Positions 1 through 17,010 of a stretch of 17,010 bases of DNA are shown here, piece after piece. A program made the translations under genes and the position numbers. The number at the start of each line of letters is the position of its first letter. Within the stretch, counting starts at the first letter, position 1. The stretch is from positions 1-17,010 of the forward strand of contig CALILB010000379.1 in the NCBI GenBank assembly GCA_938016625.1, written 5' to 3'. Below the pieces are notes generated by a model that was given only the letters and a program-made list of their open reading frames with translations, was not told the origin of the DNA and made no database searches. The DNA comes from an uncultured bacterium (GTDB lineage Bacteria; Acidobacteriota; Thermoanaerobaculia; Multivoradales; JAHEKO01).

Positions 1-1017
1 TGGCTCATGTTCGGAGTCGATCCGGCGGTGGGTACCCTGCCGGTCGAGGTCTTCTGGCTCTTTCAGGCTGTTTTTGCCGGCACCGCGGCGACTATTGTCT
101 CCGGCGCCATGGCCGAGCGGATGCGCTTTGTCGCGTATCTGACTTACTCTTTCCTGCTCACCGCATTCATCTACCCGGTGGTGGGGCATTGGGTCTGGGG
201 TGGCGGCTGGCTGGCGCGTCTCGACTTTCACGACTTCGCCGGTTCGACCGTCGTCCACGCCGTGGGTGGCATCGCCGCTCTCGTGGGTGCTTGGATGCTC
301 GGGCCACGCATCGGCCGGTTCAAGGAGGACGGCACGCCACGTGTCATCAGCGGTCACAACCTGCCGCTGGTGATGATCGGGGTCTTCATCCTCTGGTTCG
401 GCTGGTACGGCTTCAACGCCGGTTCGACACTGGGAATGGGCGAGCCGGGCGTTGTCGCCAGGATCGCGATGAACACAACATTGGCGCCGGCGATGGGGGC
501 GATCGCGGCGATGTTGACCGCCTGGGTCAAGTATGGGAAGCCCGACCTCACCATAGCCCTCAATGGCGCGCTGGCAGGACTGGTGGGTATCACCGCGCCC
601 TGCGCCGTGGTCAGCCCCGGGGCCTCGATCTGGATCGGCTTCGTCGCCGGAGTGATCGTCGTCTACGGCATCGAGTGGTTGAACCGGATAAAGGTCGACG
701 ATGTTGTCGGTGCCTTCCCGGTGCACGGCCTGTGTGGAATCTGGGGAACCCTGGCAGTGGGTCTCTTCGGGCAAGCGATGCTGGGAGCACCCAACGACGG
801 TCTCTTCTACGGCGGTGGCGCCGGGCAGCTGGGGATCCAATCGCTCGGGGTCATCGCCTGTATGGGCTTTACCGCCATCGCCATGTGGGTCGTGTTCAAG
901 GCTATCGATGCCGTGATCGGGCTGCGGGTGTCGAAGGAGACCGAGCTACGGGGACTCGATCACGACGAACACGGGATGGAGTCTTACGGTGGCTTCGTGA
1001 TCTTCACCACCGAGTGA
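1..1017 (+). CDS. amt: Ammonium transporter (Amt/MEP/Rh family), 5'-truncated. The reading frame is open to base 1, so the N-terminal ~100 aa lie upstream of the window.
   Basis: The 336-aa translation is multi-pass hydrophobic. It carries Amt-typical motifs (GTAATIVSGAMAERMRF, HNLPLVMIGVFILWFGWYGFNAGS, LNGALAGLVGITAPC, AFPVHGLCGIWGTLAVG). The frame continues upstream of the first ATG with no stop. Confidence 0.9.
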   Translation, partial: WLMFGVDPAVGTLPVEVFWLFQAVFAGTAATIVSGAMAERMRFVAYLTYSFLLTAFIYPVVGHWVWGGGWLARLDFHDFAGSTVVHAVGGIAALVGAWMLGPRIGRFKEDGTPRVISGHNLPLVMIGVFILWFGWYGFNAGSTLGMGEPGVVARIAMNTTLAPAMGAIAAMLTAWVKYGKPDLTIALNGALAGLVGITAPCAVVSPGASIWIGFVAGVIVVYGIEWLNRIKVDDVVGAFPVHGLCGIWGTLAVGLFGQAMLGAPNDGLFYGGGAGQLGIQSLGVIACMGFTAIAMWVVFKAIDAVIGLRVSKETELRGLDHDEHGMESYGGFVIFTTE

Positions 1018-1035
1018 CCGGGGAGCGAATAAGCC

Positions 1036-1368
1036 ATGAAGCAAGTCGTTGTCTATCTTCGTCCCGAGCAGTTGCCGGCGGTCAAACAGGCGCTCTACGA
1101 GGCCGAGATCCGTCACCTGACGGCAATCTCGGTCCTCGGCACGGCGCCGAAAACGGAGCAGCAGATGTACAGAGGTGTCGAACGCGAGGTGGAGCTATTC
1201 CGCCGGATGCGGGTCGAAGTCAACGTCCAAGACGCCATGCTGGAGACCACCATCGACGCCATCAGCCGGGGTGCGATGGAGAGCGGTGGCTTTGGCAAGA
1301 TCTTCATCACCGAGCTCCACGACGTCGTCAAGATCTGGACGGGTGAGCGCGGAACCCGGGCGCTCTAG
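1036..1368 (+). CDS. P-II family nitrogen regulatory protein (GlnB/GlnK-like), atypical: the residue aligned with uridylylation site Tyr51 is Arg.
   Basis: The 110-aa protein aligns by eye to E. coli GlnB along its length: MKxxxxxxKPxxL..VKxAL start, T-loop MYRGVERE, B-loop GGFGKIFIT, and C-terminal VKIWTGERG matching IRIRTGE. It sits between amt and glnA, 18 bp after the amt stop. Confidence 0.85.
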   Translation: MKQVVVYLRPEQLPAVKQALYEAEIRHLTAISVLGTAPKTEQQMYRGVEREVELFRRMRVEVNVQDAMLETTIDAISRGAMESGGFGKIFITELHDVVKIWTGERGTRAL

Positions 1369-1380
1369 CGGGGCATATCG

Positions 1381-2817
1381 ATGGCTCGGAAATACCAGGT
1401 CACCGCTCTGGACGTGCTCAAGCAGATCAAAGAGCACGACATCAAGTTTCTAGACCTCAAGTTCGTCGATCTGTTCGGCACCCTCCAGCACCTGACGGTG
1501 CCCACCGAGGTCGTCGACGAGGATACCTTCCGGCACGGCGTCGGTTTCGACGGCTCTTCGGTCCGCGGCTTCCAAAAGATCAACGAGAGCGACATGCTGC
1601 TGATGCCGGATCCGAACTCGATGTTTCGCGATCCCTTTTTCGACGACCCGGCGCTCTCGGTCTTCTGCGACGTCATCGATCCCGACGGCTACAAACCCTA
1701 CTCGCGAGACCCGCGTGGTGTCGCGCGCCGCGCCGAAAAGCTCATCCGCTCGCTCGGGATCGCCGATACGGCCTACTTTGGTCCGGAGCTCGAGTTTTTT
1801 GTCTTCGATGACGTCAGCTTCGACCAGGCTACCCAGCACGGCTACTACTTCTTGAACAGCAAGGCCGCGTTCTGGAGCACCGGTGGCAAGGAAGGGCCGA
1901 GCCTGGGTCACCAGGCGGCGCGCAAGGAGGCCTACTTTGCCGCTCCGCCCGTGGATCAGTACAACAACCTGCGCTCGAAGATCTCGGACGTACTGACGCT
2001 GGCGGGCATTGAGCCCGAGCTCCACCACCACGAGGTCGGCGCCGCGGGGCAGTGTGAGATCGGCTTCCGCTTTGGCCCGCTGCTGCTGCAGGCCGACAGC
2101 GCCATCAAGTACAAGTACGTGGTCAAGAACGTCGTCGACCGCTACGGCAAGACGGTCACCTTTATGCCCAAGCCGCTGCTGCAGGAGAACGGCTCGGGGA
2201 TGCACGTCAATGTGAGCCTGTCGAAGGGCGACACGAACCTCTTCTATCGCTCCGGCGGTTACGCGGATCTGAGCGAGACGGCGATTCATTTCATCGGTGG
2301 TCTGCTCCACCATGCGCCGGCGCTGTGTGCCTTTTGCGCGCCGACCACCAACTCTTATCGACGGCTGGTGCCCGGTTACGAGGCGCCGATGAATCTCGTC
2401 TACTCACAACGAAACCGCAGTGCCTGTATCCGGGTACCGATGATGGCCAGCTCGCCAAAGGCCAAGCGCATCGAGTTCCGCACCCCCGACCCTTCGGCAA
2501 ACCCCTACCTGGCTTTTGCCTCGATTCTGCTGGCCGGTCTCGACGGAATCCGCAACGAGATCCAGCCACCGGATCCGATCGACGAGGACATCTACGAGCT
2601 GGCCGAGACCGAAAGAGGGGCGGCCATCGCGCGGACGCCGGGCTCGTTGGAGGAGTCCATTGACGCCCTGGAGAGAGATCACGAGTTTCTCGTCCGGGAC
2701 GATGTTTTTACCTCCGACGTGATCGAGAACTACATCGACTTCAAACGGGAGCACGAGATCGAGTTCGTGCAACTGAGGCCCCATCCGGGCGAGTTCACCC
2801 TCTATTTCAATGTCTAG
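1381..2817 (+). CDS. glnA: Glutamine synthetase type I (GSI). A Tyr in a DIYEL motif aligns with the E. coli adenylylation loop NLYDLP.
   Basis: Full 478-aa GS sequence. The N-terminal beta-grasp region is MARKYQVTALDVLKQIKEHDIKFLDLKFVDLFG. The catalytic region contains GSGMHVN and NPYLAFA, and the C-terminal ...HPGEFTLYFNV closely matches E. coli ...HPVEFELYYSV. It starts 12 bp after the P-II stop. Confidence 0.95.
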   Translation: MARKYQVTALDVLKQIKEHDIKFLDLKFVDLFGTLQHLTVPTEVVDEDTFRHGVGFDGSSVRGFQKINESDMLLMPDPNSMFRDPFFDDPALSVFCDVIDPDGYKPYSRDPRGVARRAEKLIRSLGIADTAYFGPELEFFVFDDVSFDQATQHGYYFLNSKAAFWSTGGKEGPSLGHQAARKEAYFAAPPVDQYNNLRSKISDVLTLAGIEPELHHHEVGAAGQCEIGFRFGPLLLQADSAIKYKYVVKNVVDRYGKTVTFMPKPLLQENGSGMHVNVSLSKGDTNLFYRSGGYADLSETAIHFIGGLLHHAPALCAFCAPTTNSYRRLVPGYEAPMNLVYSQRNRSACIRVPMMASSPKAKRIEFRTPDPSANPYLAFASILLAGLDGIRNEIQPPDPIDEDIYELAETERGAAIARTPGSLEESIDALERDHEFLVRDDVFTSDVIENYIDFKREHEIEFVQLRPHPGEFTLYFNV

Positions 2818-2851
2818 GTGAAACGATTCGAGGCCAAAAAGGACGGTAGTC

Positions 2852-4144
2852 ATGGATCAAGCGCAGATGATAGGAATAGCACTCGGACTGGGAGGCGCAG
2901 CCCTGTTGCTCCTGCTGGCCTTCATCAAGACCCACATCGTCATCAGCCAGCCAAACGAGGTGGTCATTCTCTCGGGCCGCCAGCGCCGCCTACCGGACGG
3001 CCGCAAGGTCGGCTACAGAATCATCCGCGGTGGCCGCGGTTTCCGCTGGCCGTTCTTGGAGTCGGTCACACGCCTGCCGGTCACCACTCGGGCGATCGAT
3101 GTTCATCTATCGAAGGCCCTCAGCGCCGGCATGATCCCAATCACCGTCGAGGGGCGAGCCAACGTCAAGCTCGCCGGTAGCGAGGAGGAGGGGTTGGAGA
3201 GCGCTGTGGAGCGATTCCTGGGCAAGGGCGACGATGCCGTGGACAGAACCGCCCAGCAGGTCCTGGAGGGTGCGTTGCGCGGTGTCGTGGCGACGGTGAG
3301 TCCCGAAGAGGCCAATGCCCAGCGGCTCCAGCTCGCCCAGCAGGCCGCCGATCACGCTCGCGAGGATCTCAGCCGGCTCGGTATCGTGCTCGATTTCTTT
3401 CAGATCCAGAGCATCTCGGATGACCAGGGTTATCTCGAGTCCATCGGCCGCAAACGGAACGCGCAAGTCCAGCGAGACGCCAAAATCGCCGAGGCCAGGG
3501 CGGACGCCGAATCGCGCCAGGTGTCGGCGGAGCAGAAACTCGTCGGCCGCGAGGCCGAGATCGAGGCTGAAAAGGTCATCGTCAAACACGAGAACGAGCT
3601 CGCCGTGGAGAAGGCGGATCTCCAGGCCGAGACGAATCGCTCCCAGCAGAGAGCCGAGGTGGCGGGCAAGGTCGCACGTGTCGAGGAGGAGATCGACCTC
3701 GAGACCAAACGAGTCGAGCTGAGCACCAAACGCCACGAGGCCGACACCGTGATACCCGCGCGTGCCCACCGGGAAGCGCAAGAGCTCGAAGCGCAGGGCA
3801 AAGCGGCCAGAATCCTTGAAGACGGCAAGGCCACCGCCCAGGCCGTGGAGCTGATGCGCGAGCAATGGCAGGATGGCGACACCCATGACCTCTTTCTGAT
3901 CCAGATGCTGCCCGAGTTGCTCGACAAGGTCACCCGGGTGGTGGCCGACAACTTGCGGGTCGAAAAGCTCACCATCCTCGACGGAGGCAACGGCGAGGGC
4001 CTTCCCACTTATGTCAAGAACATCGCCAACAGCGCCGTGGTCATGCTCGAGCAGGTGAAAAACGCCACCGGTATCGATATGGAGAAACTGGCGAAGGGCG
4101 GGAGCCAGGAAAAGGACGCAAAGATCCCTAAGGACCTCGGTTGA
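2852..4144 (+). CDS. Flotillin-like SPFH/Band-7 membrane scaffold protein, with an N-terminal TM/hairpin and a long E/A/K/Q-rich coiled coil.
   Basis: N-terminal hydrophobic segment IGIALGLGGAALLLLLAFI. The SPFH core is VVILSGRQRR...IIRGGRGFRWPFLESV...IDVHLSKALSAGMIPITVEGRANVKL. An extended charged heptad-like region follows (AEARADAESRQVSAEQKLVGREAEIEAEKVIVKHENELAVEKADLQAE...), typical of FloT/YqiK-type flotillins. Confidence 0.85.
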   Translation: MDQAQMIGIALGLGGAALLLLLAFIKTHIVISQPNEVVILSGRQRRLPDGRKVGYRIIRGGRGFRWPFLESVTRLPVTTRAIDVHLSKALSAGMIPITVEGRANVKLAGSEEEGLESAVERFLGKGDDAVDRTAQQVLEGALRGVVATVSPEEANAQRLQLAQQAADHAREDLSRLGIVLDFFQIQSISDDQGYLESIGRKRNAQVQRDAKIAEARADAESRQVSAEQKLVGREAEIEAEKVIVKHENELAVEKADLQAETNRSQQRAEVAGKVARVEEEIDLETKRVELSTKRHEADTVIPARAHREAQELEAQGKAARILEDGKATAQAVELMREQWQDGDTHDLFLIQMLPELLDKVTRVVADNLRVEKLTILDGGNGEGLPTYVKNIANSAVVMLEQVKNATGIDMEKLAKGGSQEKDAKIPKDLG

Positions 4145-4261
4145 GGCGCGAGCCCGAGCCACCTTCTGGCCTTCTCATCGGCCGCGAGGCGAGAACCCCA
4201 CTCGATTCCGCAGGCGGGATAAGATTCGAGTCTCTCGGGCGTGAGGAGGGCCTTGTCGAGC

Positions 4262-4281
4262 CGAGGCTTTTATATGCCTCG
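4262..4281 (+). promoter_or_regulatory. Small hairpin (6-bp stem CGAGGC/GCCTCG, 8-nt loop TTTTATAT). It sits in the 166-bp intergenic region upstream of the stressosome-module operon. The AT-rich loop is the only TATA-like element in this GC-rich gap, so it is a candidate -10 or operator element.
   Basis: The inverted repeat is read directly at 4262-4267 and 4276-4281. The only substantial non-coding gap on the plus strand in this window is 4145-4310, between the flotillin stop and the 4311 ATG. Confidence 0.3.
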
Positions 4282-4310
4282 CCGGCAGGATTAGTCCGAG
4301 GTGATCTCAG

Positions 4311-6206
4311 ATGACGATACGAGCAAAGATCCTGATCATCCTCTCCACGGTAGCCATCGTGTCGGCGGGAATAAGCTCGCTTCTCGGCTACCGAACCGCC
4401 CGCAAGGCTCTGGAGAGACAGTCCTTCGACAAGCTCACCGCGGTGCGGGAGATGAAGGCCAGCCAGGTGGAGGACTACTTCCAGCAGATCGTCGACCAGA
4501 TCGTGACCTTCTCCAGAGATCGGATGACAGTAGACGCCATGAGGGCGTTCAGTGCAGAGTTCTCGAACCTCGAGAGCCAGGTGGGATGGGACGAGCAGGC
4601 AACCGAAGAGGCAGAGCTCGAGCTTCGCTTGTACTACCAAGAGGAGTTCTTGCCTCGACTCGAGCAGAACCTCGAAAGTCCAGCCACCCTTTCCAGCTTT
4701 TGGCCGAATGACCGCGAGAGCCGGATACTCCAATATCAGTTCATCGCCGCCAATCCGTTCGACACCGGCTCTAAATCCAGTCTCGAGGAGCCCGCGGAAA
4801 AGAGCGCCTACAGTCGCGCTCATAAGCTGTATCATCCGATCTTTCGGGACTACCTCGAGAGATTCGGCTTCTACGACATCTTTCTGGTCGACCTAGAAAC
4901 CGGGCACATCGTCTACTCGGTATTCAAGGAGGTGGACTTCGGGACATCGTTGTTAAGCGGTCCTTACCGGGAGACGAATCTTGCTCGGGCGTTTCAGGCT
5001 GCCCGCCAGGCCGCCGCGCAGGATTTTGTGCTGTTGGTCGACTTCGAGCCCTATCACCCCTCCTACGGCGGTCAGGCTTCGTTCATTGCCTCGCCGATCT
5101 ACGACGGCCCCGAGAAGGTCGGAGTCCTGGTCTTCCAGATGCCCGTCGATCGGATCAACGACATCATGACCAGCAAGCACGAGTGGTCACGGGTGGGTCT
5201 GGGCGAGAGCGGAGAGACCTATATTGTCGGCTCGGACTACAAGATCCGAAATCAGTCGCGCTTTCTGATCGAGGACAAGGAAAACTACCTAAAGTTGATC
5301 GCGAGCATCGGTACTCCGGACTCGATCATAAAGGCCATCGCCAACCTCGATAGCTCCATCGGTCTTCAGGAGGTGCAGACCGAAGGCACTCGGGCTGCAC
5401 TAGGTGGGGAAACCGGTACGAAGATCTTTCCCGATTATCGTGGTGTCCCCGTACTCTCATCGTTCATGCCGCTCGACATTAGGGATGTCGATTGGGTGAT
5501 CATGAGCGAGATCGACGAGGCCGAAGCGTTCGAGCCTGCCAGGACACTGAGGAACCGGGTTTTGATCTGGCTGGCGGTTCTGATCGGCGCGAGTGTCGTC
5601 GCTGCCATGGTCTTCTCCAAGGGTCTGACCCGGCGACTCGAGGCGCTTTCTGAGACAGCAGCCCAACTTGCCGACGGCTTCCTCTATGTGGAGGTCGACA
5701 CCAGCGGCCGAGACGAGATAGCCGATCTCTCCAAGAGCTTCGAGACCATGCGGCAGTCTCTTGTCGAGCTGGTGGAGAAGCAGGAGGCCGAGATCGACGC
5801 TCTGTCGACACCGCTGATCCCGCTACTGGACGACGTCGTGGCCATGCCTCTCGTCGGCGAGCTCGATTCCAAGCGGATCGAGAAGGCCAGGCAGACTCTC
5901 GTCGAAGGTCTGCATGCCAGGGGGGCGAAGGCGGCGCTTCTCGATTTGACCGGTGTTCCTAGCCTCGACACCGGGAGCGCCGAAGCGCTTCTGGGAGCTG
6001 CCAAGGCGGCCCAGCTCTTGGGAGCGAAGGTCGTCATCACCGGTATGCGATCGGAGGTCGCTGCCAGCGTTGCAGATCTCGGCCTCCACCTCGACGGAGT
6101 CGCCACCGAGCGCTCGCTACAGAGCGGTATCTCTTTCATTATGAACGAGATAGGCGCTGCCAAGATGAAAAACCACTTGCAAGCTGGTGAGGAGGAAGAC
6201 GAATGA
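4311..6206 (+). CDS. Membrane-anchored RsbR-type stressosome protein. Domain order: TM1, periplasmic double-Cache (dCache_1-like) sensor, TM2, HAMP, coiled coil, C-terminal RsbR-type STAS domain.
   Basis: TM1 is ILIILSTVAIVSAGISSLLGY. The ~370-aa extracytoplasmic region ends in the Cache hallmark DYRGVPVLSSFMPLDIRDVDWVIMSEIDEAEAF. TM2 is VLIWLAVLIGASVVAAMVFS. The HAMP-like segment is KGLTRRLEALSETAAQLADG...DEIADLSKSFETMRQSL. The C-terminus aligns with B. subtilis RsbR STAS: LSTPLIPLLDDVVAMPLVGELDSKR...ALLDLTGVPSLDTGSAEALL...GAKVVITGMRSEVAASVADLG. The RBS GAGGTGA lies 6 nt before the ATG. Confidence 0.85.
   Translation: MTIRAKILIILSTVAIVSAGISSLLGYRTARKALERQSFDKLTAVREMKASQVEDYFQQIVDQIVTFSRDRMTVDAMRAFSAEFSNLESQVGWDEQATEEAELELRLYYQEEFLPRLEQNLESPATLSSFWPNDRESRILQYQFIAANPFDTGSKSSLEEPAEKSAYSRAHKLYHPIFRDYLERFGFYDIFLVDLETGHIVYSVFKEVDFGTSLLSGPYRETNLARAFQAARQAAAQDFVLLVDFEPYHPSYGGQASFIASPIYDGPEKVGVLVFQMPVDRINDIMTSKHEWSRVGLGESGETYIVGSDYKIRNQSRFLIEDKENYLKLIASIGTPDSIIKAIANLDSSIGLQEVQTEGTRAALGGETGTKIFPDYRGVPVLSSFMPLDIRDVDWVIMSEIDEAEAFEPARTLRNRVLIWLAVLIGASVVAAMVFSKGLTRRLEALSETAAQLADGFLYVEVDTSGRDEIADLSKSFETMRQSLVELVEKQEAEIDALSTPLIPLLDDVVAMPLVGELDSKRIEKARQTLVEGLHARGAKAALLDLTGVPSLDTGSAEALLGAAKAAQLLGAKVVITGMRSEVAASVADLGLHLDGVATERSLQSGISFIMNEIGAAKMKNHLQAGEEEDE
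6189..6198 (+). promoter_or_regulatory. Shine-Dalgarno GAGGAGGAAG, 7 nt upstream of the 6203 ATG. It lies inside the 3' end of the upstream gene, so the two genes are translationally coupled through an ATGA stop/start overlap.
   Basis: Read directly: tGAGGAGGAAGacgaATGA. Confidence 0.6.
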
Positions 6207-7111
6207 ACAGAACCTCAGGATCGGCCGGGGAGGGCGGAAACATGGCTGCTCTCCTCGAGCTCTACCGAATCTCCGAGGACGATCTGGACCGCGTAAGGGA
6301 ATTCGCCAAGATGGCCGGATCGGGATTGGAGGGTTTGATTGGCCAATGGTACGAGTGGCTCCAGAACTTGCCGGAGTACGACCACTTCTTTTCCGAGCCC
6401 GAGACTCTGGAACGCGTCAAACGTCTTCAGCAGGACTACTGGGCAACGTTTCTAGCGGCGCAAATGGACGATTCCTACCTCGAGACTCGGAGGCAGGTGG
6501 GGGAGACACACGCTCGGATCGGACTTTCGCTGAACACTTACTTTGCCGGGATGGACATGATGCTCGAGCTCTTCACTAGAGCCGTTCACAAGGCTGATTT
6601 GAAGGACGGGGCAAAGTTGAACATGCAGGAGTCGGTTACCAAGATGCTCCATCTCGACACCTCCATCGTTGTCGATACCTACAACCACATGGTCGAGGAG
6701 ACGCTGACGGCCCAGGCAAAGTCGCTGATGGAGATGTCCACTCCGGTGACCCAGATCTGGAGCGGGATTCTCTTGCTGCCGATCGTTGGGATCATCGACT
6801 CGAAGCGCGCCCGCGACATCATGAATGCCACGCTGGCCAAGATCGGAGAGACCCAGGCACGGATATTCATTCTGGACATCAGTGGCGTGGGAGTGGTGGA
6901 TACGGCGGTGGCCAATCACCTGATCAAGATCACTCGGGCTACCCGATTGATGGGTTGTGACTGCACTATCTCCGGGGTGTCACCATCGATTGCGCAGACC
7001 ATTGTCGATCTCGGTATAGACGTTGGCAGGATCAAGACCACATCGACGATGAAAGACGCTCTGGCCGACGCCTTCCAACGTGTCGGTATGGAGATCACCC
7101 AGGCGAGCTGA
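6203..7111 (+). CDS. rsbR: RsbR-type stressosome protein with an N-terminal globin-coupled-sensor-like domain (candidate heme-binding proximal His103 in VGETHARIGL) and a C-terminal STAS domain.
   Basis: The C-terminal half is a near-canonical RsbR STAS: MSTPVTQIWSGILLLPIVGIIDSKRARDIM...IFILDISGVGVVDTAVANHLIKITRATRLMGCDCTISGVSPSIAQTIVDLGIDVG. The N-terminal ~140 aa is a helical globin-like domain with an H-x-R-I-G-L...Y pattern reminiscent of globin-coupled sensors. The ATG overlaps the upstream stop (ATGA). An alternative start is ATG 6242. Confidence 0.85.
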   Translation: MNRTSGSAGEGGNMAALLELYRISEDDLDRVREFAKMAGSGLEGLIGQWYEWLQNLPEYDHFFSEPETLERVKRLQQDYWATFLAAQMDDSYLETRRQVGETHARIGLSLNTYFAGMDMMLELFTRAVHKADLKDGAKLNMQESVTKMLHLDTSIVVDTYNHMVEETLTAQAKSLMEMSTPVTQIWSGILLLPIVGIIDSKRARDIMNATLAKIGETQARIFILDISGVGVVDTAVANHLIKITRATRLMGCDCTISGVSPSIAQTIVDLGIDVGRIKTTSTMKDALADAFQRVGMEITQAS

Positions 7112-7115
7112 GAAG

Positions 7116-7556
7116 ATGGCCGGCGGCAGTGGCTCGAGGATCCCCCTTCAGGTGTCGCGGCAGTGCGTCGTGGCCTCGATCCAGCTCGATCTGACCGCGG
7201 AGGTACTCCGACAGTTCCGCGCCGACCTGCTCGGGCTGCTGCACGACTCCGGATGCAGCGGCGTCATACTCGACGTCTCGGGTGTCCAGATCATGGATTT
7301 TGAAGACTTCGAGGCGTTGCGACGGACCATGGCCATGGCGGCCCTCATGGGGGCCCAGACGATCGTCTCCGGTCTCAGGGCGGGTGTCGTCTCGTCGTTG
7401 GTCGAGCTGGGTGCCGACACCGAGGATATTGTCGCCACGCTCGATCTGGACGATGCCTTTCGCGTCATGGATGAGCTGCGCTCGGCGGCTCGCGATGAGC
7501 TCGAGGAGGAGGACAACCGTGAGCAGTCGGTCGGTCCGCTTGCAGATCCGGTCTGA
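7116..7556 (+). CDS. rsbS: RsbS-type single-domain STAS protein (stressosome core). The residue aligned to the phosphorylatable Ser59 appears to be Phe in an acidic DFEDFE context.
   Basis: The 146-aa protein aligns with B. subtilis RsbS: RIPLQVSRQCVVASIQLDLTAEVLRQFRADLL...GVILDVSGVQIMDFEDFEAL...MGAQTIVSGLRAGVVSSLVELG. The six-frame ORF begins at 7080 but overlaps the upstream gene, so ATG 7116 (MAGGSG...) is preferred. Confidence 0.8.
   Translation: MAGGSGSRIPLQVSRQCVVASIQLDLTAEVLRQFRADLLGLLHDSGCSGVILDVSGVQIMDFEDFEALRRTMAMAALMGAQTIVSGLRAGVVSSLVELGADTEDIVATLDLDDAFRVMDELRSAARDELEEEDNREQSVGPLADPV
7503..7513 (+). promoter_or_regulatory. Shine-Dalgarno GAGGAGGAGGA, 5 nt upstream of the GTG 7519 start of the RsbT-RsbX fusion gene. 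It is embedded in the 3' end of rsbS.
   Basis: Read directly: tcGAGGAGGAGGAcaaccGTGagc. The GTG is in frame with the RsbT-like sequence. Confidence 0.5.
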
Positions 7557-8619
7557 GCCGGACGCGATGCGGCCGGTGATGGAGGCCACTCGCAGAGCCC
7601 GCCAGATAGGCTTTGGACCTCAGGAGGCCCAGGCGATCTCCACAGCGGTGTCAGAGCTCGCGAGGAACATCTTGAAGTATGCGAGTACTGGAGAGGTGAT
7701 CATCGAGGAGACGCAAAGCGGGCGGCGTAAGGGCCTTCAAATCACTGCGCGCGACCGCGGTCCGGGCATCGCCGATGTCGAGTCCGCCATGCGGGATCAT
7801 TTCAGCTCGGGGGGAACCCTCGGTCTGGGTCTGCCGGGTGTCAAGCGGATGATGGATGAGTTCGAGATCGATTCCGCACCCGGCCGCGGCACCCGAGTCG
7901 TGATTCGCAAGTGGCTAGGGCCCCACGGTGATCTTGGAAGGTCCCGTCTCCGCGAGGCCTTGAAGAGATCGGGGGAGGGGCGGACCGGCGGCCAGATCAG
8001 CAGTGGCGCACTCACAAGCGGCGAGACCAAGGCTGCGGCCGGAGTCGACTGCGCGTTTTTCATTCGCCCCTGCCGAGGAGAGCGCGTCAGCGGTGACGCA
8101 GCCGTCATCGAGCAGCGCGAAGGCTTTATCTTCGCTGCCCTCATCGATGCCTTGGGTCATGGGCCTTCCGCCCACCGGATCGCCGTGCAGGGAGCGGCTT
8201 ACCTGAAAGAGTCGTGGACTTCAGATGTCCTTGCCACCCTCCATGGGCTCCACGATGCACTTCGCGGCACCGAGGGGGCCGCTGCAGGGCTCTGTGTGCT
8301 GGAGGTCGCTACGAGCACGGTGCGTTATGCGGGCGTCGGAAACACGGTTATCCGCAGCTTCGGCTCGCGAGAGGAGCGTCTCTACTCAGCGGCCGGCACC
8401 CTGGGCCATCAGATGCGCACCCCCAAGGAGCAACGTCTGGTGGTCACTCCCGGCGATGTCCTCATGCTCTACTCTGACGGCATCAAGGAACGGTTCGAGC
8501 TGGACGATTATCCACAGCTCAGGTATCAGAAATCACGCACCATCGCGAAGACCGTAGTGGAGCGATTCGGCAAGGACCACGACGACGCCGGCTGCGTGGT
8601 ATTGAGAATCGAATCATGA
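7519..8619 (+). CDS. Fusion protein. N-terminal RsbT-type GHKL serine kinase (stressosome switch kinase). A ~40-aa G/S-rich linker follows. C-terminal RsbX-like PP2C feedback phosphatase. The start could instead be ATG 7567.
   Basis: The N-domain is VRLQIRSEPDAMRPVMEATRRARQIGFGPQEAQAISTAVSELARNILKYAS...ITARDRGPGIADVESAMRDHFSSGGTLGLGLPGVKRMMDEF, matching B. subtilis RsbT including the G1/G2 ATP-lid boxes. The C-domain is CRGERVSGDAAVIEQREGFIFAALIDALGHGPSA...YAGVGNTVIRSF...VLMLYSDGI, matching B. subtilis RsbX motifs (CGDSFF..ELICAVADGLGSGSLA, YCSVGNVRFIL, IIHTDGL). The single uninterrupted frame 7282..8619 is in the six-frame track. Its 3' end overlaps the next ATG (ATGA). Confidence 0.8.
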   Translation: MSSRSVRLQIRSEPDAMRPVMEATRRARQIGFGPQEAQAISTAVSELARNILKYASTGEVIIEETQSGRRKGLQITARDRGPGIADVESAMRDHFSSGGTLGLGLPGVKRMMDEFEIDSAPGRGTRVVIRKWLGPHGDLGRSRLREALKRSGEGRTGGQISSGALTSGETKAAAGVDCAFFIRPCRGERVSGDAAVIEQREGFIFAALIDALGHGPSAHRIAVQGAAYLKESWTSDVLATLHGLHDALRGTEGAAAGLCVLEVATSTVRYAGVGNTVIRSFGSREERLYSAAGTLGHQMRTPKEQRLVVTPGDVLMLYSDGIKERFELDDYPQLRYQKSRTIAKTVVERFGKDHDDAGCVVLRIES

Positions 8620-10283
8620 TTCCCCTCGGAAGCATTGCTATCAGACAATCGGCGTCGATTCTCGAAGCCCGAAACAAGATCCGGACAGTGGCCGAGACGG
8701 TTCTGCATGATGCTGTGGGCGCCACTCGCGTAGCCACGGCGACTTCGGAGATAGCCCGGCTCCTGCTGCGCGAAGGAAACGATTCCCGCATTGATGTGGG
8801 CCTCGACATCCAAGCTCGAGCCCGTTGGCTGGTGATCGATTTCATCGGCCATCAATCGCTGTCCGGGGTGAACGAACTGGCGGGATTATTCGACGAGGTC
8901 GACGGACCCTATGATGTCAGCGGCGAGAACCTCGTCCGGGGCCTGGTGTCGCTTCCAGGTAGCGGCTTGCCCGACGAGGGATCGATCGCCACACTCCGGT
9001 CGGTGGTGGAAAAGAAGGGCCGGGACGAGCTGATCGCCGAAATCCAGATCAAGAACGTCGAGCTGCAGGATTCACTGGACAACTTGAGACGGGAGCGGTC
9101 GGCCAAGGAGCGGATGGAGAGCGAGCTCAACATCGGCCGCGAGATCCAGATGAGCATGCTGCCGCTCTCCTTCCCCGCCTTCCCAGACCGTACCGACTTC
9201 GACGTCCATGCTTCTCTCTATCCCGCGCGTGAGGTCGGCGGTGACTTCTACGATCTGTTTCTGATCGACAACCAGCATTTCTGCTTCTGTGTCGGCGACG
9301 TGTCGGGGAAGGGAGTGCCGGCGGCGCTCTTCATGGCGGTGACCAAGACCCTGATCAAGTCGCGAGCCGCGAACGACCTCTCGCCGGCGAGCATCTTGAG
9401 CCACGTCAACACTGAGTTGAGTCATCGCAACGAATCCTGCATGTTCGTGACCATATTCCTGGCCATCCTCGATCTCGAGATCGGTGAAATGGTCTACACC
9501 AATGCCGGACATAATCCACCTTACGTCAAGCGTGCCGATGGCAGTCTCCTGCGCCTCGATAGCCGGCATGGTCCGATCGTCGGTGCCGCAGAGGGTCTGG
9601 CCTATCGAGAGGACAGGGAAGGCCTCAGTCCCGGAGACCTCGTTTTTCTTTACACGGATGGGGTTACGGAGGCCATGAACGAGGAAAGTCAGCTCTATAC
9701 CGAAGACAGACTCAAAGGGCTTCTCTCGAATCACCCTTGCAGCTCGGTCGAGGAATCGGTCCGGGTCAGCGTGGATGACGTGTGGGATTTTCAGGGCGAG
9801 GCCGAACAGGCCGATGATATTACGGTAATGACCGTGTCCTACTCCGGGCCGAGTGAAGATGTGGAGTCGAACCGACTCGAGCTGAGAGCTGTTAATCGAC
9901 TCGAAGAGATCGCTCGTGTCAATGAGAGCTTCAACCAGTTCGCCCGGGAGCATGGGATACCGGATGCGATCAGACGGAAGATCAATCTCGTCTTCGATGA
10001 GCTGCTCAACAACATCATCTCCTACGCCTACGGGGACGATGACGAGCATCTCATGGAGATCGTCATCTCATTGGTGAACGGTCGCCTCGTCACCACGATT
10101 AGCGACGATGGTCGGGCTTTCAATCCCTTCGAAAGCGAAGCTCCGGATACCGGACTCTCGGTCGATGAACGTCCCATCGGAGGTCTGGGTGTACACCTCG
10201 TGCGAAGTGTGATGGACACGGTGAAATACGAGCGGCACGGCAGGAGAAACGTCGTGACCCTGGAAAAGATCGTCGAGCAGTAA
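8616..10283 (+). CDS. Fusion protein. An N-terminal ~150-aa domain of uncertain identity (possibly a degenerate RsbT-like domain lacking ATP-lid motifs). Then an RsbU-type PP2C (SpoIIE-family) phosphatase. Then a C-terminal RsbW/SpoIIAB-type GHKL anti-sigma-factor kinase.
   Basis: The PP2C core is MESELNIGREIQMSMLP...GGDFYDLF...FCFCVGDVSGKGVPAALFMAVTK...SCMFVTIFLAILD...YTNAGHNPP...LVFLYTDGVTEA...ADDITVMTVSY, matching B. subtilis RsbU motif by motif. The C-terminal 140 aa is LELRAVNRLEEIARVNESFNQFAREHGIP...INLVFDELLNNIISYAY...LVTTISDDGRAFNPFE...IGGLGVHLVRSVMDTVKYERHGRRNVVTLEK, matching RsbW. The ATG overlaps the upstream stop. Confidence 0.85.
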   Translation: MIPLGSIAIRQSASILEARNKIRTVAETVLHDAVGATRVATATSEIARLLLREGNDSRIDVGLDIQARARWLVIDFIGHQSLSGVNELAGLFDEVDGPYDVSGENLVRGLVSLPGSGLPDEGSIATLRSVVEKKGRDELIAEIQIKNVELQDSLDNLRRERSAKERMESELNIGREIQMSMLPLSFPAFPDRTDFDVHASLYPAREVGGDFYDLFLIDNQHFCFCVGDVSGKGVPAALFMAVTKTLIKSRAANDLSPASILSHVNTELSHRNESCMFVTIFLAILDLEIGEMVYTNAGHNPPYVKRADGSLLRLDSRHGPIVGAAEGLAYREDREGLSPGDLVFLYTDGVTEAMNEESQLYTEDRLKGLLSNHPCSSVEESVRVSVDDVWDFQGEAEQADDITVMTVSYSGPSEDVESNRLELRAVNRLEEIARVNESFNQFAREHGIPDAIRRKINLVFDELLNNIISYAYGDDDEHLMEIVISLVNGRLVTTISDDGRAFNPFESEAPDTGLSVDERPIGGLGVHLVRSVMDTVKYERHGRRNVVTLEKIVEQ

Positions 10284-10323
10284 AGCAAGAGGGATCAAAC
10301 ATGTATTCAAAAGAGGTGTGGCT

Positions 10324-10656
10324 ATGAAAATGGAAACCACTGCGGTGGACTCGGTTACGGTTGTACGCTGCGAGGGCAATCTCGACACCAACACCTCGGT
10401 CGAGGCCCAGGACACCTTGAACCAGCTCATGGATGATGGGGCCGCCAAGATATTGATCGATTTCGAAAAGGTCGATTTCGTCAGCAGTGCCGGACTCCGG
10501 ATACTGCTCGCTAGTGCAAAGCGCCTGAGCTCATCCGGAGGTGGTCTACGCATCACCGGCCTCAACGACGTCGTCAACGAGGTCTTCGAGATTTCGGGCT
10601 TCAGCACGATCCTCGACGTTTTCGCCTCGGAGGAAGAGGCGCTCCAGGGCTTCTGA
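10324..10656 (+). CDS. rsbV: RsbV/SpoIIAA-type anti-sigma-factor antagonist: a single STAS domain with a conserved phosphorylatable Ser in the DFVSSAGLRIL motif.
   Basis: The 110-aa protein MKMETTAVDSVTVVRCEGNLDTNTSVEAQDTLNQLMDDGAAKILIDFEKVDFVSSAGLRILLASAKRL...LRITGLNDVVNEVFEISGFSTILDVFASEEEA is the classic SpoIIAA fold signature. The RBS AAGAGG lies 7 nt upstream of ATG 10324. The six-frame track begins at in-frame GTG 10318. Confidence 0.85.
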   Translation: MKMETTAVDSVTVVRCEGNLDTNTSVEAQDTLNQLMDDGAAKILIDFEKVDFVSSAGLRILLASAKRLSSSGGGLRITGLNDVVNEVFEISGFSTILDVFASEEEALQGF

Positions 10657-10746
10657 GGGGTACCTGCCTCCTCGAAGACTCTCGACGACGCATCCAGTGT
10701 TCAGAAAGCTCTCCAGGTGCCGGTGTCCTGAGAAAGCACCACCACG

Positions 10747-12123
10747 ATGACGATCAGTGAGAGCTCGCGGCTCCGGACCGGATGGGATCTGCTGATCCTG
10801 GTGCTGGTTCTTCTAAGCTGTCTGCTGGTTCCTTTTCAGATCGCTTTCCGGCATCAGGTGAACCTCGCAGGGTCGGTTCTTCTCTATTTGATCGACCTCT
10901 TCTTTCTGCTGGACATCTTTCTCAACTTCCACACCACCTTCCGGCGCCAGGGTGCCGAGGTCACCGATCCCGGTGAGATAGCCCGGCACTACCTCGGAAC
11001 CCTCTTTCTCGTCGATCTGCTGGCGGCGTTACCGTTCGATGCCCTCCTGCTCCCGTGGAGAGGCGTCGAGATCGGCGGAGTCTCGGTCGTCCTGCTGGCG
11101 AGGCTGCTGCGCCTGCTCCGCGTCGTCCGCCTGTTTGCCATCCTCAGACGGTGGCAGCGACAGAATTGGACCAACGCAGGTTTCTTGCGCATCGCCAAGC
11201 TAGCGGCAGTCATTCTCCTCCTGACCCACTGGATCGCCTGTGCCTGGTTTCTGATTCCTTACATGGAAGGTTTTCCCGAGGACTCGTGGGTCGTGACCGA
11301 GGGAATCGATGAGGCGGAACCGGTGTCGCAGTATGTCCGCTCTCTCTACTGGGCCATCGTCACCATGACGAGTGTGGGTTACGGGGACATCACACCGGTC
11401 CGCAATACCGAGTATCTCTTCACCATGCTGGCCATCGCGGTGGGCGCCTCGATCTACGCCTTTGTCATCGGCAACATCGCATCGCTGCTCAGCAATCTCG
11501 ATCGCGCCAAAGCGAGCTTCTGGAACCGGGCGGAGACGGCCAATCAGTACCTCCGCAGCCGGCGCGCCCCGTCCAGACTGAGCGAGCACATTCGGGACTA
11601 CTACGAGTACGTGTGGGAGAGGTACCGGGGGATGAGCGAGCAGGAGCTCTTTGGCGATCTTCCGGGTCCGGTGAGGCTCGAGATTCTCCTCCACCTGACT
11701 CGAGATCTGCTGGAGCAGGTGCCACTGTTCCGCCACTGCACCCCGGCACTCCGCAACGCGTTGCTCATGGCGTTGAGGCCACAGGTCTTCGGACCGGACG
11801 GATACATAGTCAGGGAGGGGGAGGTCGGGAACGAGATCGTCTTCATCAGCCGGGGTACGGTGGAGATCCTTACTGAAGAAAGAAAGAAGTCCCACGGCAA
11901 CCTGGGCAGTGGCGAGTACTTCGGCGATCTGTCGATGCTGCTGGGGGAGCGGCGAACGGCGTCGGTGCGGGCAGTGACATACTGTGACGTGTTCGTTCTG
12001 GCGCGAGAGGACTTCGACAGGATCAAGAGCGAGTACGAGGAGTTCAAGGAGATTCTGAAGACCATCTCCTCGGAAAAGTCGGAGCGCCTGTCTGCGCTTG
12101 TTCTGGACGGCGTGGTCCTCTAG
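10747..12123 (+). CDS. Cyclic-nucleotide-binding-domain-containing voltage-sensor K+ channel (6TM; S4 with regularly spaced Arg; TSVGYGD selectivity filter; C-terminal CNBD with intact phosphate-binding cassette).
   Basis: S1-S3 are hydrophobic segments. S4 is VVLLARLLRLLRVVRLFAILRR. The pore helix plus filter is YWAIVTMTSVGYGDITPV (nt 11368-11388 encode TSVGYGD). The CNBD is VPLFRHC..LRNALLMALRPQVFGPDGYIVREGEVGNEIVFISRGTVEI...GSGEYFGDLSMLLGERRTASVRAVT, with Glu and Arg-Thr of the phosphate-binding cassette present. Confidence 0.9.
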   Translation: MTISESSRLRTGWDLLILVLVLLSCLLVPFQIAFRHQVNLAGSVLLYLIDLFFLLDIFLNFHTTFRRQGAEVTDPGEIARHYLGTLFLVDLLAALPFDALLLPWRGVEIGGVSVVLLARLLRLLRVVRLFAILRRWQRQNWTNAGFLRIAKLAAVILLLTHWIACAWFLIPYMEGFPEDSWVVTEGIDEAEPVSQYVRSLYWAIVTMTSVGYGDITPVRNTEYLFTMLAIAVGASIYAFVIGNIASLLSNLDRAKASFWNRAETANQYLRSRRAPSRLSEHIRDYYEYVWERYRGMSEQELFGDLPGPVRLEILLHLTRDLLEQVPLFRHCTPALRNALLMALRPQVFGPDGYIVREGEVGNEIVFISRGTVEILTEERKKSHGNLGSGEYFGDLSMLLGERRTASVRAVTYCDVFVLAREDFDRIKSEYEEFKEILKTISSEKSERLSALVLDGVVL

Positions 12124-12137
12124 ACGATCGAGAATCG

Positions 12138-14738: not shown

Positions 14739-14744
14739 TTGTCG

Positions 14745-15665
14745 ATGTCGCTGACCCCCACCGAGAGAGCATGTCTCGAAGCCTTTCGACAAGGTGCCGA
14801 TCCGGTGCGGACTAGGGATCCGGGCAGGATGGAAGAGTGGCTCGGATTCGGTCTCCGTCTGCTGCTGGAGGCGGGCGCGAAGATCCGAGAGGGTCGCGCC
14901 AAGATCGACGAGGGCGAGGTCGAGCTCAAGAGTGATGGGTCCCCCGTCACTAGTATCGAGGAGGAGATCGAGCGGCTATTGGTAGAACGCCTCACGGTCT
15001 TTACCGAGAACATTGCGATGGTGGGTGAGGAGACCGGTGGAGCTCTGCCGGAGTCGGGATTTGCGGTGGCGATCGATCCGATCGACGGCACCTGGGCCTT
15101 TGTCAACGGCACCGAGACCTACACCACCACCCTCGCCTTCTTCCATGACCGTGAGCCCTTTCTGGGCATGGTCTCCAACCCCGCTACAGGCGAGATCGGG
15201 TATGCCCTCAACGAGGAGGCCTCGCGCCTTCTTCAGCTCTCCCTCTATGGCGAAGCAGATGCCGCCTGTTCTTTGCCACGGGCGGGAGCGGAGGCCGCGC
15301 CACCCTGCCTACTTGTCAATGTCCATCCGAGCAGCCAAGGTGGAGCCCTGGCCGCGGCACTCCACGAGGCATGGTCGCGGGGTGAGGTCGACATGGTGCG
15401 CTCACCCGGCGGCTCGCCGGCCTGGGCGCTGCTCGAAGCCGCCAAGGGCGACTTCGTCTATGTCAATCAGTGGACGAAGAGGCCGGCGGACGTCTACGAC
15501 CTGGCTGCCGGTGTCCTGCTCGTGCGGCGGGCCGGCGGTGAGGTCACGGATCTGGAAGGGCAGCCGATCGACATGCTTCGCCACCAGGGTCCCTTTGTCG
15601 CCTCGATCGACCAGCCTTCCAGAAAAAAGGTAATCGAGCTGGTCGGCCGGGTGGTGAGCAGCTAG
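14745..15665 (+). CDS. Inositol monophosphatase / CysQ (3'(2'),5'-bisphosphate nucleotidase) family phosphatase.
   Basis: Family motifs are present: MVGEETGG (metal-binding E-E), AIDPIDGTWAFVNGT (the DPIDGT signature) and, later, WAL..LEAAKGDFVYV (WD-x-x-AG-like). ATG 14745 is preferred because an RBS-like GGGTGA lies 6 nt upstream, inside the stop of the previous gene. The six-frame track starts at TTG 14739. Confidence 0.8.
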   Translation: MSLTPTERACLEAFRQGADPVRTRDPGRMEEWLGFGLRLLLEAGAKIREGRAKIDEGEVELKSDGSPVTSIEEEIERLLVERLTVFTENIAMVGEETGGALPESGFAVAIDPIDGTWAFVNGTETYTTTLAFFHDREPFLGMVSNPATGEIGYALNEEASRLLQLSLYGEADAACSLPRAGAEAAPPCLLVNVHPSSQGGALAAALHEAWSRGEVDMVRSPGGSPAWALLEAAKGDFVYVNQWTKRPADVYDLAAGVLLVRRAGGEVTDLEGQPIDMLRHQGPFVASIDQPSRKKVIELVGRVVSS

Positions 15666-15725
15666 CCGGCTACCGCCTCTCGTCGTACTTAGAAGTCAGT
15701 TCGAAGGAATAGATCGCAGGGTCGA

Positions 15726-16985: not shown

Positions 16986-17010
16986 TGCCCGCCCTCCAAT
17001 CTAGGTGCCG

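Follow-up and report, generated by a model that had tools for sequence, protein, structure and literature searches.

A predicted membrane-spanning RsbR paralog with a dCache sensor precedes a globin-RsbR stressosome module in an uncultured acidobacterium

Introduction

Can a stressosome take its signal from a receptor that spans the membrane? The question is raised by a gene at positions 4311–6206 of a 17,010-nucleotide stretch of DNA from an uncultured bacterium of the Acidobacteriota (GenBank assembly GCA_938016625.1, contig CALILB010000379.1, positions 1 to 17,010 of the forward strand), which as a whole is referred to as the window; coordinates lie on its + strand unless marked otherwise. 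The gene encodes a 631-residue membrane RsbR paralog, here named R1, and is followed by genes for a globin-coupled RsbR, RsbS, RsbT and RsbX. An earlier note on this DNA had proposed that the protein joins the input half of a chemoreceptor (a transmembrane (TM) helix, a dCache domain, a second TM helix and HAMP) to an RsbR-type STAS output, and that it carries glutamate, a potential phosphomimetic, at the first of the two RsbR phosphorylation sites. As described below, this combination of input and output is upheld by sequence, fold and gene context; the observation is genuine, well past anything that chance would give, and it is confirmed except for the residue at the first phosphorylation site.

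To our knowledge, the inputs of stressosomes and the route by which a signal reaches the STAS core are unsettled in the Gram-positive models, and the only defined inputs are light, for YtvA, and O2, for the globin-RsbR of Vibrio. If the reading put forward here is true, an RsbR with a dCache input would give the stressosome an input site for small molecules that is open to purification and ligand screening. It would also wire the well-understood relay from the second TM helix to HAMP into the RsbR linker helix, so that transmission from sensor to core could be probed with the mutational approaches established for chemoreceptors and sensor kinases. It would also mean that stressosomes are not solely cytoplasmic and that membrane attachment can be built into the sensor subunit, unlike in Listeria, where it depends on Prli42, a separate protein of 31 residues. 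The R1 family is found in at least four phyla under generic database labels, and its recognition would re-annotate many genes.

Results and Discussion

R1 couples a chemoreceptor-like input half to a STAS domain

The open reading frame of R1 starts with ATG, and a Shine-Dalgarno-like element (AGGTGA) lies 5' of the start. Kyte-Doolittle analysis in 19-residue windows detected exactly two hydrophobic segments, with peak windows starting at residues 7 and 417, while the rest of the protein stayed below threshold. The first, TM1 (approximately residues 7–25; 4329–4385), reaches window values of 1.8–2.4 and either acts as a signal-anchor helix or may be cleaved as a signal peptide; in an AlphaFold2 model computed from a family alignment of 30 sequences, with a mean predicted local distance difference test score (pLDDT) of 85.3, it belongs to a continuous helix of residues 3–69. 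The second, TM2 (approximately residues 415–436; 5553–5618), peaks at 2.69 and runs without a break into HAMP helix AS1 (model helix 408–454). The HAMP domain itself (residues 435–485; 5613–5765) scores 38.6 bits in Pfam (PF00672, cut-off 25), and PDB sequences matching this region include the HAMP domains of HtrII and Af1503. The two TM helices and the HAMP domain of the earlier note are thus all accounted for.

Beyond HAMP, a linker helix (residues 486–505; 5766–5825) with the motif ALSTPLIPL, which aligns with 'ELSAPLLPI' in the linker of Listeria RsbR (residues 142–161), leads to the STAS domain (residues 506–612; 5826–6146), within which Pfam STAS matches residues 506–593 at 44.4 bits (cut-off 22.6). 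HAMP helix AS2 merges with the RsbR linker in the model into one single helix (residues 469–498) that leads into the first strand of STAS. Full-length homologs with the same three domains number more than 100, at 52–89% identity.

The two hydrophobic segments flank the dCache region and HAMP follows directly after TM2. Since HAMP occupies this position and the partners of STAS are cytoplasmic, the sensor (approximately residues 27–414; 4389–5552) is predicted to be extracytoplasmic, between the two TM helices, whether TM1 is retained or cleaved; the topology is deduced from the standard position of HAMP. The arrangement is the usual one for a sensor held between two TM helices and followed by HAMP, and the STAS domain, as shown below, is not a generic one, so that on neither of the two counts on which the original proposal could have failed did it do so.

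The sensor is predicted to adopt a dCache fold

Pfam dCache_1 (PF02743) matches residues 186–341 of R1 at 31.3 bits (E = 1.9e-7), below the cut-off of 45. Because this score is sub-threshold, the fold of the sensor was examined. Most 10-residue blocks of the region have an average pLDDT above 90, and when the model was compared with the PDB by Foldseek, the top matches were integrative full-length models of B. subtilis chemoreceptors, followed by the dCache ligand-binding domains of PctA, PctB, PctC, CtaA, McpH, PctD, DctB and Mlp24, all with a probability of 1.0 and with target-normalised TM-scores of approximately 0.5. Some relatives bearing the same sensor exceed the dCache_1 cut-off (47.4 and 48.6 bits), and three of the related loci described below (L081, L086 and L087) also carry a dCache_1 match that is not flagged as weak. 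The modelled R1 sensor shows the layout of solved dCache domains, with a long N-terminal helix and then two PAS-like α/β modules. The predicted fold confirms the R1 sensor as a dCache domain; the assignment made in the earlier note therefore stands at the level of fold and falls short at that of the Pfam score. A typical dCache domain comprises approximately 250–280 residues; the R1 sensor has approximately 390, with an extra helical segment of approximately 115 residues (70–185) between the long N-terminal helix and the first β-strand of the model. Among solved structures in the PDB, none matched the sensor by sequence at E ≤ 0.01.

Scans of genomes and metagenomes with the family alignment returned mainly proteins that share residues 1 to approximately 490 (TM1, dCache, TM2 and HAMP) with R1 at 35–58% identity and carry other outputs, namely signalling domains of methyl-accepting chemotaxis proteins (MCPs), hybrid histidine kinases, class III adenylate cyclases, PP2C, and a PAS-PP2C-RsbW-like kinase. 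A STAS output was carried by only 1 of 80 loci in the genome scan and 7 of 80 in the metagenome scan; such loci were few since the patterns used for searching were located in the sensor domain, and the count of gene orders given below consequently rests on 16 loci and not on hundreds. Across 79 sensor modules with different outputs, approximately 40 positions are at least 95% identical, and the conserved polar and aromatic residues include Q141, N148, K155, H171, Y188, D189, Y202, K206, E207, D209, D244, Y248, S251, Y252, Q276, W292, E302, T303, Y304, D309, R313 and R317. We read these near-invariant positions as a defined putative binding site. The sensor is a mobile input module, and its ligand is probably a specific one. 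It represents a distinct, highly conserved dCache subfamily that also occurs in Cyanobacteria, Gammaproteobacteria, Bacteroidota, SAR324 and others; we know of no characterised member or ligand of this subfamily.

The output domain is of the RsbR type

To type the STAS domain, the C-terminal 148 residues of R1 were compared with all PDB sequences by phmmer. The best match was Listeria RsbR (77.4 bits, 1.3e-20), followed by V. vulnificus RsbR (56.7 bits, 3.3e-14), RsbS of several species (51.1 bits, approximately 2e-12) and YtvA (47.2 bits, 2.9e-11), with SpoIIAA far behind (20.7 bits, 4e-3) and no match to a SulP/SLC26 STAS domain even at E = 10. Within the window the ranking is similar, the R1 STAS being nearest to that of the globin-RsbR (50.8 bits), then RsbS (38.4) and then an RsbV-like protein (17.1). 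By Foldseek, the domain superimposes on B. subtilis RsbS with a target-normalised TM-score of 0.92, and the best NCBIfam model for residues 480–604 is YtvA_fam, which spans linker and STAS together. The match to RsbR already starts in the linker helix, where 'IDALSTPLIPL' of R1 (residues 494–504) is matched by 'LQELSAPLLPI' of Listeria RsbR and 'ITALSTPIVPI' of YtvA; the motif that marks RsbR membership, (E/A)LS(A/T)P(L/I)(I/L/V)P just before STAS, is present, and Q491, I495, A497, L498, P501, I503 and P504 of the linker are invariant in the family alignment. Judged by sequence, the R1 STAS is clearly RsbR-type, as had been claimed in preference to a generic or SulP-like domain: the scores fall from RsbR through RsbS to SpoIIAA, and SulP is not matched at all. 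A recent duplication of the STAS domain of the neighbouring globin-RsbR was considered as the origin of the R1 STAS and rejected, since the two are only 24% identical.

These results bear on whether R1 might be an ordinary chemoreceptor under a wrong name, or a generic STAS/SulP membrane protein, with no link to the stressosome at all. Some sources do label family members 'methyl-accepting chemotaxis protein', and the same sensor-HAMP module sits on genuine MCPs; however, R1 ends in STAS and has no match to MCPsignal (PF00015) in Pfam even at E ≤ 1, SulP/SLC26 is not matched, the STAS is RsbR-type, and the gene lies in a complete RsbR/S/T/X context. We give this explanation hardly any credence, and both a generic STAS/SulP and an MCP identity were rejected as contradicted by the domain, STAS and synteny results. 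In a full-text literature search we found no description of a membrane-integral RsbR, although reviews may contain an earlier mention, and R1 is best classed as an undescribed variant within the known RsbR family.

R1 retains two potentially phosphorylatable residues

The positions equivalent to Thr171 and Thr205 of B. subtilis RsbRA (Thr175 and Thr209 of Listeria RsbR) were located in HMMER alignments, with 7b0u, 9o3o and 9o5l for the first site, and in MAFFT alignments. The register is fixed by the mutant chains of Listeria RsbR, T175A in 9o3o ('IDAER') and T175E in 9o5l ('IDEER'). In R1 the first site is Ser520, within 'PLVGELD-S-KR' (codon at 5868–5870), and the second is Thr554, within 'SLD-T-GSA' (codon at 5970–5972). 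The glutamate that had been assigned to the Thr171 position is Glu517; it lies three residues upstream of the site, opposite Listeria Thr172, and this part of the proposal has to be withdrawn; the second site was correctly described as retained. On these alignments R1 has two potentially phosphorylatable residues and no phosphomimetic.

The family presents a different picture. Among the best 120 homologs of R1, the Thr171 equivalent is Ser/Thr in 7 (6%), Asp/Glu in 56 (47%), Pro in 32 and Ala in 11, and the Thr205 equivalent is Ser/Thr in 24 (20%), Asp/Glu in 57 (48%), Pro in 12 and Ala in 11; Ser/Thr occupies both sites in only 5 of the 120. The phosphomimetic idea, wrong for R1, holds among the aligned homologs for much of its family. 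A similar pattern is seen in YtvA, which has E168 and E202 at the two sites (sequence verified on 2mwg). The co-encoded globin-RsbR, on the other hand, carries Ser and Thr at its two RsbT target positions in all eight loci examined, and these sites match Ser199 and Thr233 of V. vulnificus RsbR, which the study of that protein equates with the B. subtilis RsbR phosphorylation sites (PMC9237108).

R1 is encoded next to a globin-RsbR in all loci examined

The stop codon of R1 overlaps by 4 nucleotides (ATGA) the start of the gene for the globin-coupled RsbR (6203–7111), in which Pfam detects Protoglobin (96.8 bits) and STAS (49.6 bits). It is followed by RsbS (7116–7556), a single STAS domain whose best phmmer matches in the PDB are RsbS of B. 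subtilis, Vibrio and Listeria (5e-16), and by an RsbT kinase fused to an RsbX-like PP2C phosphatase (7519–8619; 366 residues from the assigned GTG start), with Pfam HATPase_c_2 and SpoIIE in one open reading frame. We compared the window with 15 other loci, drawn from a 4.46-Mb Chloroflexota chromosome, metagenome-assembled genomes of Latescibacterota, Planctomycetota and Acidobacteriota, and metagenome contigs with no assigned taxon, reading gene order as far as each contig reaches. Within that reach, the order R1, globin-RsbR, RsbS, RsbT, RsbX was kept in 16 of 16 loci, and R1 was never seen among them without a globin-RsbR. Between loci, the STAS domains of R1 are 45–63% identical, compared with 70–97% for the globin-RsbR. 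A globin-RsbR/S/T/X module with variable downstream outputs is known from Heinz et al.; the section of that account consulted makes no mention of an upstream membrane paralog (PMC9237108).

The core is followed in the window by a presumptive output module. Its first gene (8616–10283) encodes an effector with an N-terminal domain of approximately 180 residues, PP2C and an RsbW-like kinase (Pfam SpoIIE 167 bits, HATPase_c_2 87 bits), and its second (10318–10656) a single-STAS, RsbV-like anti-sigma-factor antagonist (NCBIfam TIGR00377, 85 bits, cut-off 53; Pfam STAS 69 bits). The first 218 residues of the effector match no Pfam family, and RsbU_N is not detectable in them by sequence. The N-terminal domain reappears in L086, where it heads a hybrid histidine kinase encoded in the corresponding place (11250–13292; 37% identity over 167 residues, E = 3e-22), and because it is common to both proteins, the N-terminal stretch of approximately 170 residues is the best candidate for an RsbT-docking module. 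A scan of positions 4000–10900 for promoter- and terminator-like sites found nothing above chance (promoters, 0 against 1.7 expected; terminators, 5 against 4.3), and operon boundaries are therefore drawn from gene spacing alone. Besides the window, 5 of the 7 loci with called genes have the RsbV-like gene; L081 and L086 have R1 and lack both the PP2C-RsbW and the RsbV-like genes.

In the fused RsbT-RsbX protein, the N-box and G-boxes of the kinase and the Asp motifs of PP2C look intact. The same fusion is found in L083 (11223–12320) and L087 (10286–11437), and the two proteins are encoded by separate adjacent genes in L081, L082, L084 and L086. Joining a kinase to the phosphatase that reverses its action is unusual for stressosome modules.

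The distribution of these genes and of the phosphorylation sites allows another role to be weighed, namely that R1 is a membrane-bound antagonist of the RsbV/SpoIIAA type whose STAS domain is the substrate or partner of the downstream RsbW-like kinase, and not a stressosome subunit. The Joint Genome Institute label 'anti-anti-sigma regulatory factor/HAMP domain-containing protein' on family members would fit such a role, as would the RsbW-like kinase domain encoded in the same cluster and the fact that Ser520 of R1 corresponds in position to the serine that is phosphorylated in antagonists. Nevertheless, the STAS domain scores 77 bits against RsbR and only 21 against SpoIIAA and 17 against the cluster's own RsbV-like protein; most loci with called genes possess a dedicated RsbV-like gene; the candidate phospho-acceptor is Ser/Thr in only 6% of the family, a misfit for an antagonist that depends on phosphorylation; and L081 and L086 keep R1 where there is no PP2C-RsbW or RsbV-like gene. 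We consider an antagonist role very unlikely.

R1 as an accessory subunit of a globin-based stressosome

Cumulatively, our findings make it probable that R1 is a membrane-anchored accessory RsbR paralog through which a ligand signal from outside the cytoplasm enters a globin-based stressosome; within this proposal we infer the co-assembly, the tethering, the direction of the signal, the ligand and the output. An accessory role is suggested because R1 always occurs with a globin-RsbR that keeps Ser/Thr at its target sites, while the R1 family mostly has Asp/Glu, Pro or Ala there. The extracytoplasmic dCache domain between the two TM helices would bind a ligand, and the signal would pass the membrane via TM2 into HAMP, whose second helix is predicted to run unbroken into the RsbR linker helix and could thereby control the RsbR-type STAS. 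Through their STAS domains, R1 dimers would enter a mixed stressosome as minority subunits, the bulk being soluble globin-RsbR and RsbS; they would anchor the complex at the membrane and add an outside signal to the gas or redox signal of the globin. The combined state may then set the activity or release of the RsbT kinase, fused here to RsbX, and RsbT would act on the PP2C-RsbW-like protein and its RsbV-like substrate. The likely substrates of RsbT would be the sites of the globin-RsbR and, in the source organism of the window, Ser520 and Thr554 as well.

Several points weigh against this proposal. The Pfam score of the dCache domain is below its cut-off, and the sensor presumably lacks PctA-type amino-acid-binding residues, none of which are apparent by eye against the known motif. 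The R1 STAS, as noted, shares only 24% identity with that of its supposed partner. Neither a sigma factor nor a Pfam-detectable RsbU_N is encoded in the window. In RsbS, the position of the phosphorylated serine (Ser59 in B. subtilis, Ser56 in Listeria) is Phe, in 'IMD-F-EDF', and in L081 to L087 it is L, G, A, Y, P, L and A, usually followed by acidic residues. Signalling in this clade cannot hinge on RsbS being phosphorylated there, in that the canonical phospho-serine is missing from RsbS in 8 of 8 loci examined and the classical trigger, in which phosphorylation of RsbS is followed by release of RsbT, cannot apply as written. The RsbS of Vibrio likewise lacks the Bacillus phospho-serine (PMC4976288), and evidence for phosphorylation-independent signalling in B. 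subtilis (PMC3944199) is consistent with an RsbS devoid of the site. Finally, a closed pseudo-icosahedral particle cannot hold all of its turrets in the membrane, and for this reason a mixed assembly has to be assumed. Rough geometry speaks for the proposed placement at the membrane: with a core radius of approximately 90 Å and turrets that reach approximately 150 Å, one or a few membrane-anchored turrets per particle should leave the neighbouring turrets free of clashes with a flat membrane.

In another possible arrangement, R1 is a stand-alone membrane receptor dimer that works in parallel to a soluble globin stressosome, its STAS domain sequestering RsbT (or RsbT-RsbX) and freeing it on ligand binding. 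Receptors with HAMP are necessarily dimeric, and a closed shell fits poorly with the geometry of a membrane; the divergence of the R1 STAS from that of the globin-RsbR and its lower conservation between loci would also be in keeping with a separate receptor, and RsbT-dependent, stressosome-independent sensing is reported for B. subtilis (title of PMC11821858). Yet RsbR-type STAS domains in the systems studied assemble into RsbR/RsbS cores, and YtvA, the nearest analogue with regard to the acidic sites, joins stressosomes formed by other RsbR paralogs. Moreover, R1 strictly adjoins the globin-RsbR and RsbS genes and is translationally coupled to them in 16 of 16 loci, and this favours a single complex. 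Keeping both sides in mind, we regard the stand-alone receptor as unlikely, albeit the most serious competitor of the accessory subunit.

Relation to known systems

As an accessory subunit, R1 would be added to a core that closely resembles the RsbR/S/T/X module of V. vulnificus and V. brasiliensis. The Vibrio module and the window have the same core of a protoglobin-STAS RsbR, an RsbS without the phospho-serine, RsbT, and RsbX directly downstream, and in both a variable output module comes after the core and sigma B is missing (PMC9237108, PMC4976288). In the section of the Vibrio study consulted, there is a single cytoplasmic RsbR per module, whereas in the window and its relatives a second RsbR with two TM helices, dCache and HAMP always precedes the globin-RsbR. 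The window further differs from Vibrio in the fusion of RsbT to RsbX and in an output composed of the PP2C-RsbW-like fusion and the RsbV-like protein.

YtvA, the LOV-STAS protein of B. subtilis, resembles R1 in that a sensor is joined to STAS by a helical linker and in that both would be accessory RsbR paralogs; the R1 family is YtvA-like in being mostly acidic at both phosphorylation sites, from which R1 itself departs with Ser520 and Thr554. RsbS by itself is not enough for YtvA to form a stressosome; YtvA depends on other RsbR proteins for this and provides positive input only (PMC3944199). It is soluble and senses blue light through a flavin mononucleotide-binding LOV domain, in contrast to the membrane-spanning R1 with its extracytoplasmic dCache and HAMP. 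Attachment to the membrane has a precedent in Listeria, where RsbR is tethered by the miniprotein Prli42 (PMC6614362); there the tether is a separate protein acting on a soluble non-heme globin turret, whereas in R1 tether and sensor would both reside in the RsbR polypeptide.

The input half of R1 has the same architecture and, by Foldseek, the same fold as PctA, PctB, PctC, CtaA, McpH, DctB and B. subtilis McpB. What sets R1 apart from these dCache-HAMP chemoreceptors and sensor kinases is its output, an RsbR-type STAS, along with the helical insertion in the sensor. Within partner switching, the closest parallel is RsbU of Chlamydia, built from a periplasmic sensor, TM helices, HAMP and PP2C, since both would be membrane-spanning components that read a periplasmic signal (abstract of PMC11619594); in Chlamydia, however, the membrane sensor is the phosphatase acting on RsbV, while R1 would be an RsbR-type STAS subunit upstream of RsbT.

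Other membrane-spanning RsbR-type proteins

To estimate how widespread such proteins are, the HAMP-linker-STAS fragment of R1 was used in an exhaustive HMMER search of 1.84 billion cluster representatives, which yielded 6,453 representatives at E ≤ 1e-10 and 25 at E ≤ 1e-30. Among the 150 matches listed, with lengths from 135 to 798 residues, most align over linker and STAS alone. Of the best 149 representatives, 27 have at least two hydrophobic segments, mostly arranged as two TM helices around a long loop, and Pfam examples include dCache_1-HAMP-PAS-STAS (P0383) and TM-TM-HAMP-PAS-STAS (P0423); L084 also encodes a Tll0287-like-HAMP-PAS-STAS protein (2112–3824). Going by these sequences, membrane-spanning RsbR-type proteins form a sizeable and diverse class in sequence space. 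Their database labels are generic, such as 'HAMP domain-containing protein', 'methyl-accepting chemotaxis protein' and 'anti-anti-sigma regulatory factor'. RsbR-type STAS proteins with yet other inputs were also encountered, at 441–1649 (−) of L087 and in representative P0299, with PAS-PAS-STAS among the architectures, and in representative P0327 STAS is combined with an AMP-binding enzyme domain.

A bolder extension, which we offer as tentative and rather doubtful, is that the loci represent a widespread, undescribed class of stressosomes built at the membrane, in which one transmembrane dCache RsbR would respond to a defined extracellular small molecule and be combined with an O2- or NO-sensing globin-RsbR. 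Such a complex would integrate chemical cues from outside with gas or redox cues from inside and signal, with no phosphorylation of RsbS, to a partner switch devoid of a sigma factor, and it might control the nitrogen assimilation or ion-channel genes that adjoin the module (Amt, GlnK, GlnA, a cyclic-nucleotide-gated channel and an APH-TCAD9-NUDIX protein).

Neighbouring genes

Several genes recur beside the module in differing orders and orientations; in the window they lie at 7–2817 (amtB, glnK, glnA), 10747–12123, 12138–14738 and 14739–15665. Genes for an ammonium transporter, P-II and glutamine synthetase, as well as one for a cyclic-nucleotide-gated ion channel, are shared by the window, L084 and L087, an 866-residue APH-TCAD9-NUDIX protein by the window, L085 and L087, and an inositol monophosphatase by the window, L082 and L087. 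These recurring neighbours hint at a link with nitrogen status or nucleotide signalling.

A gene for an SPFH/Band-7 (stomatin- or flotillin-like) protein stands directly upstream of R1 in three loci, at 2852–4144 (+) in the window, 1–141 in L085 and 2–721 in L090. SPFH proteins organise membrane microdomains, and this one could conceivably help to position a membrane-tethered complex. A further component of the partner-switching type near the cluster is a GAF-PP2C (SpoIIE-type) phosphatase, whose gene lies on the opposite strand at the window's right edge, at 15726–16985 (−).

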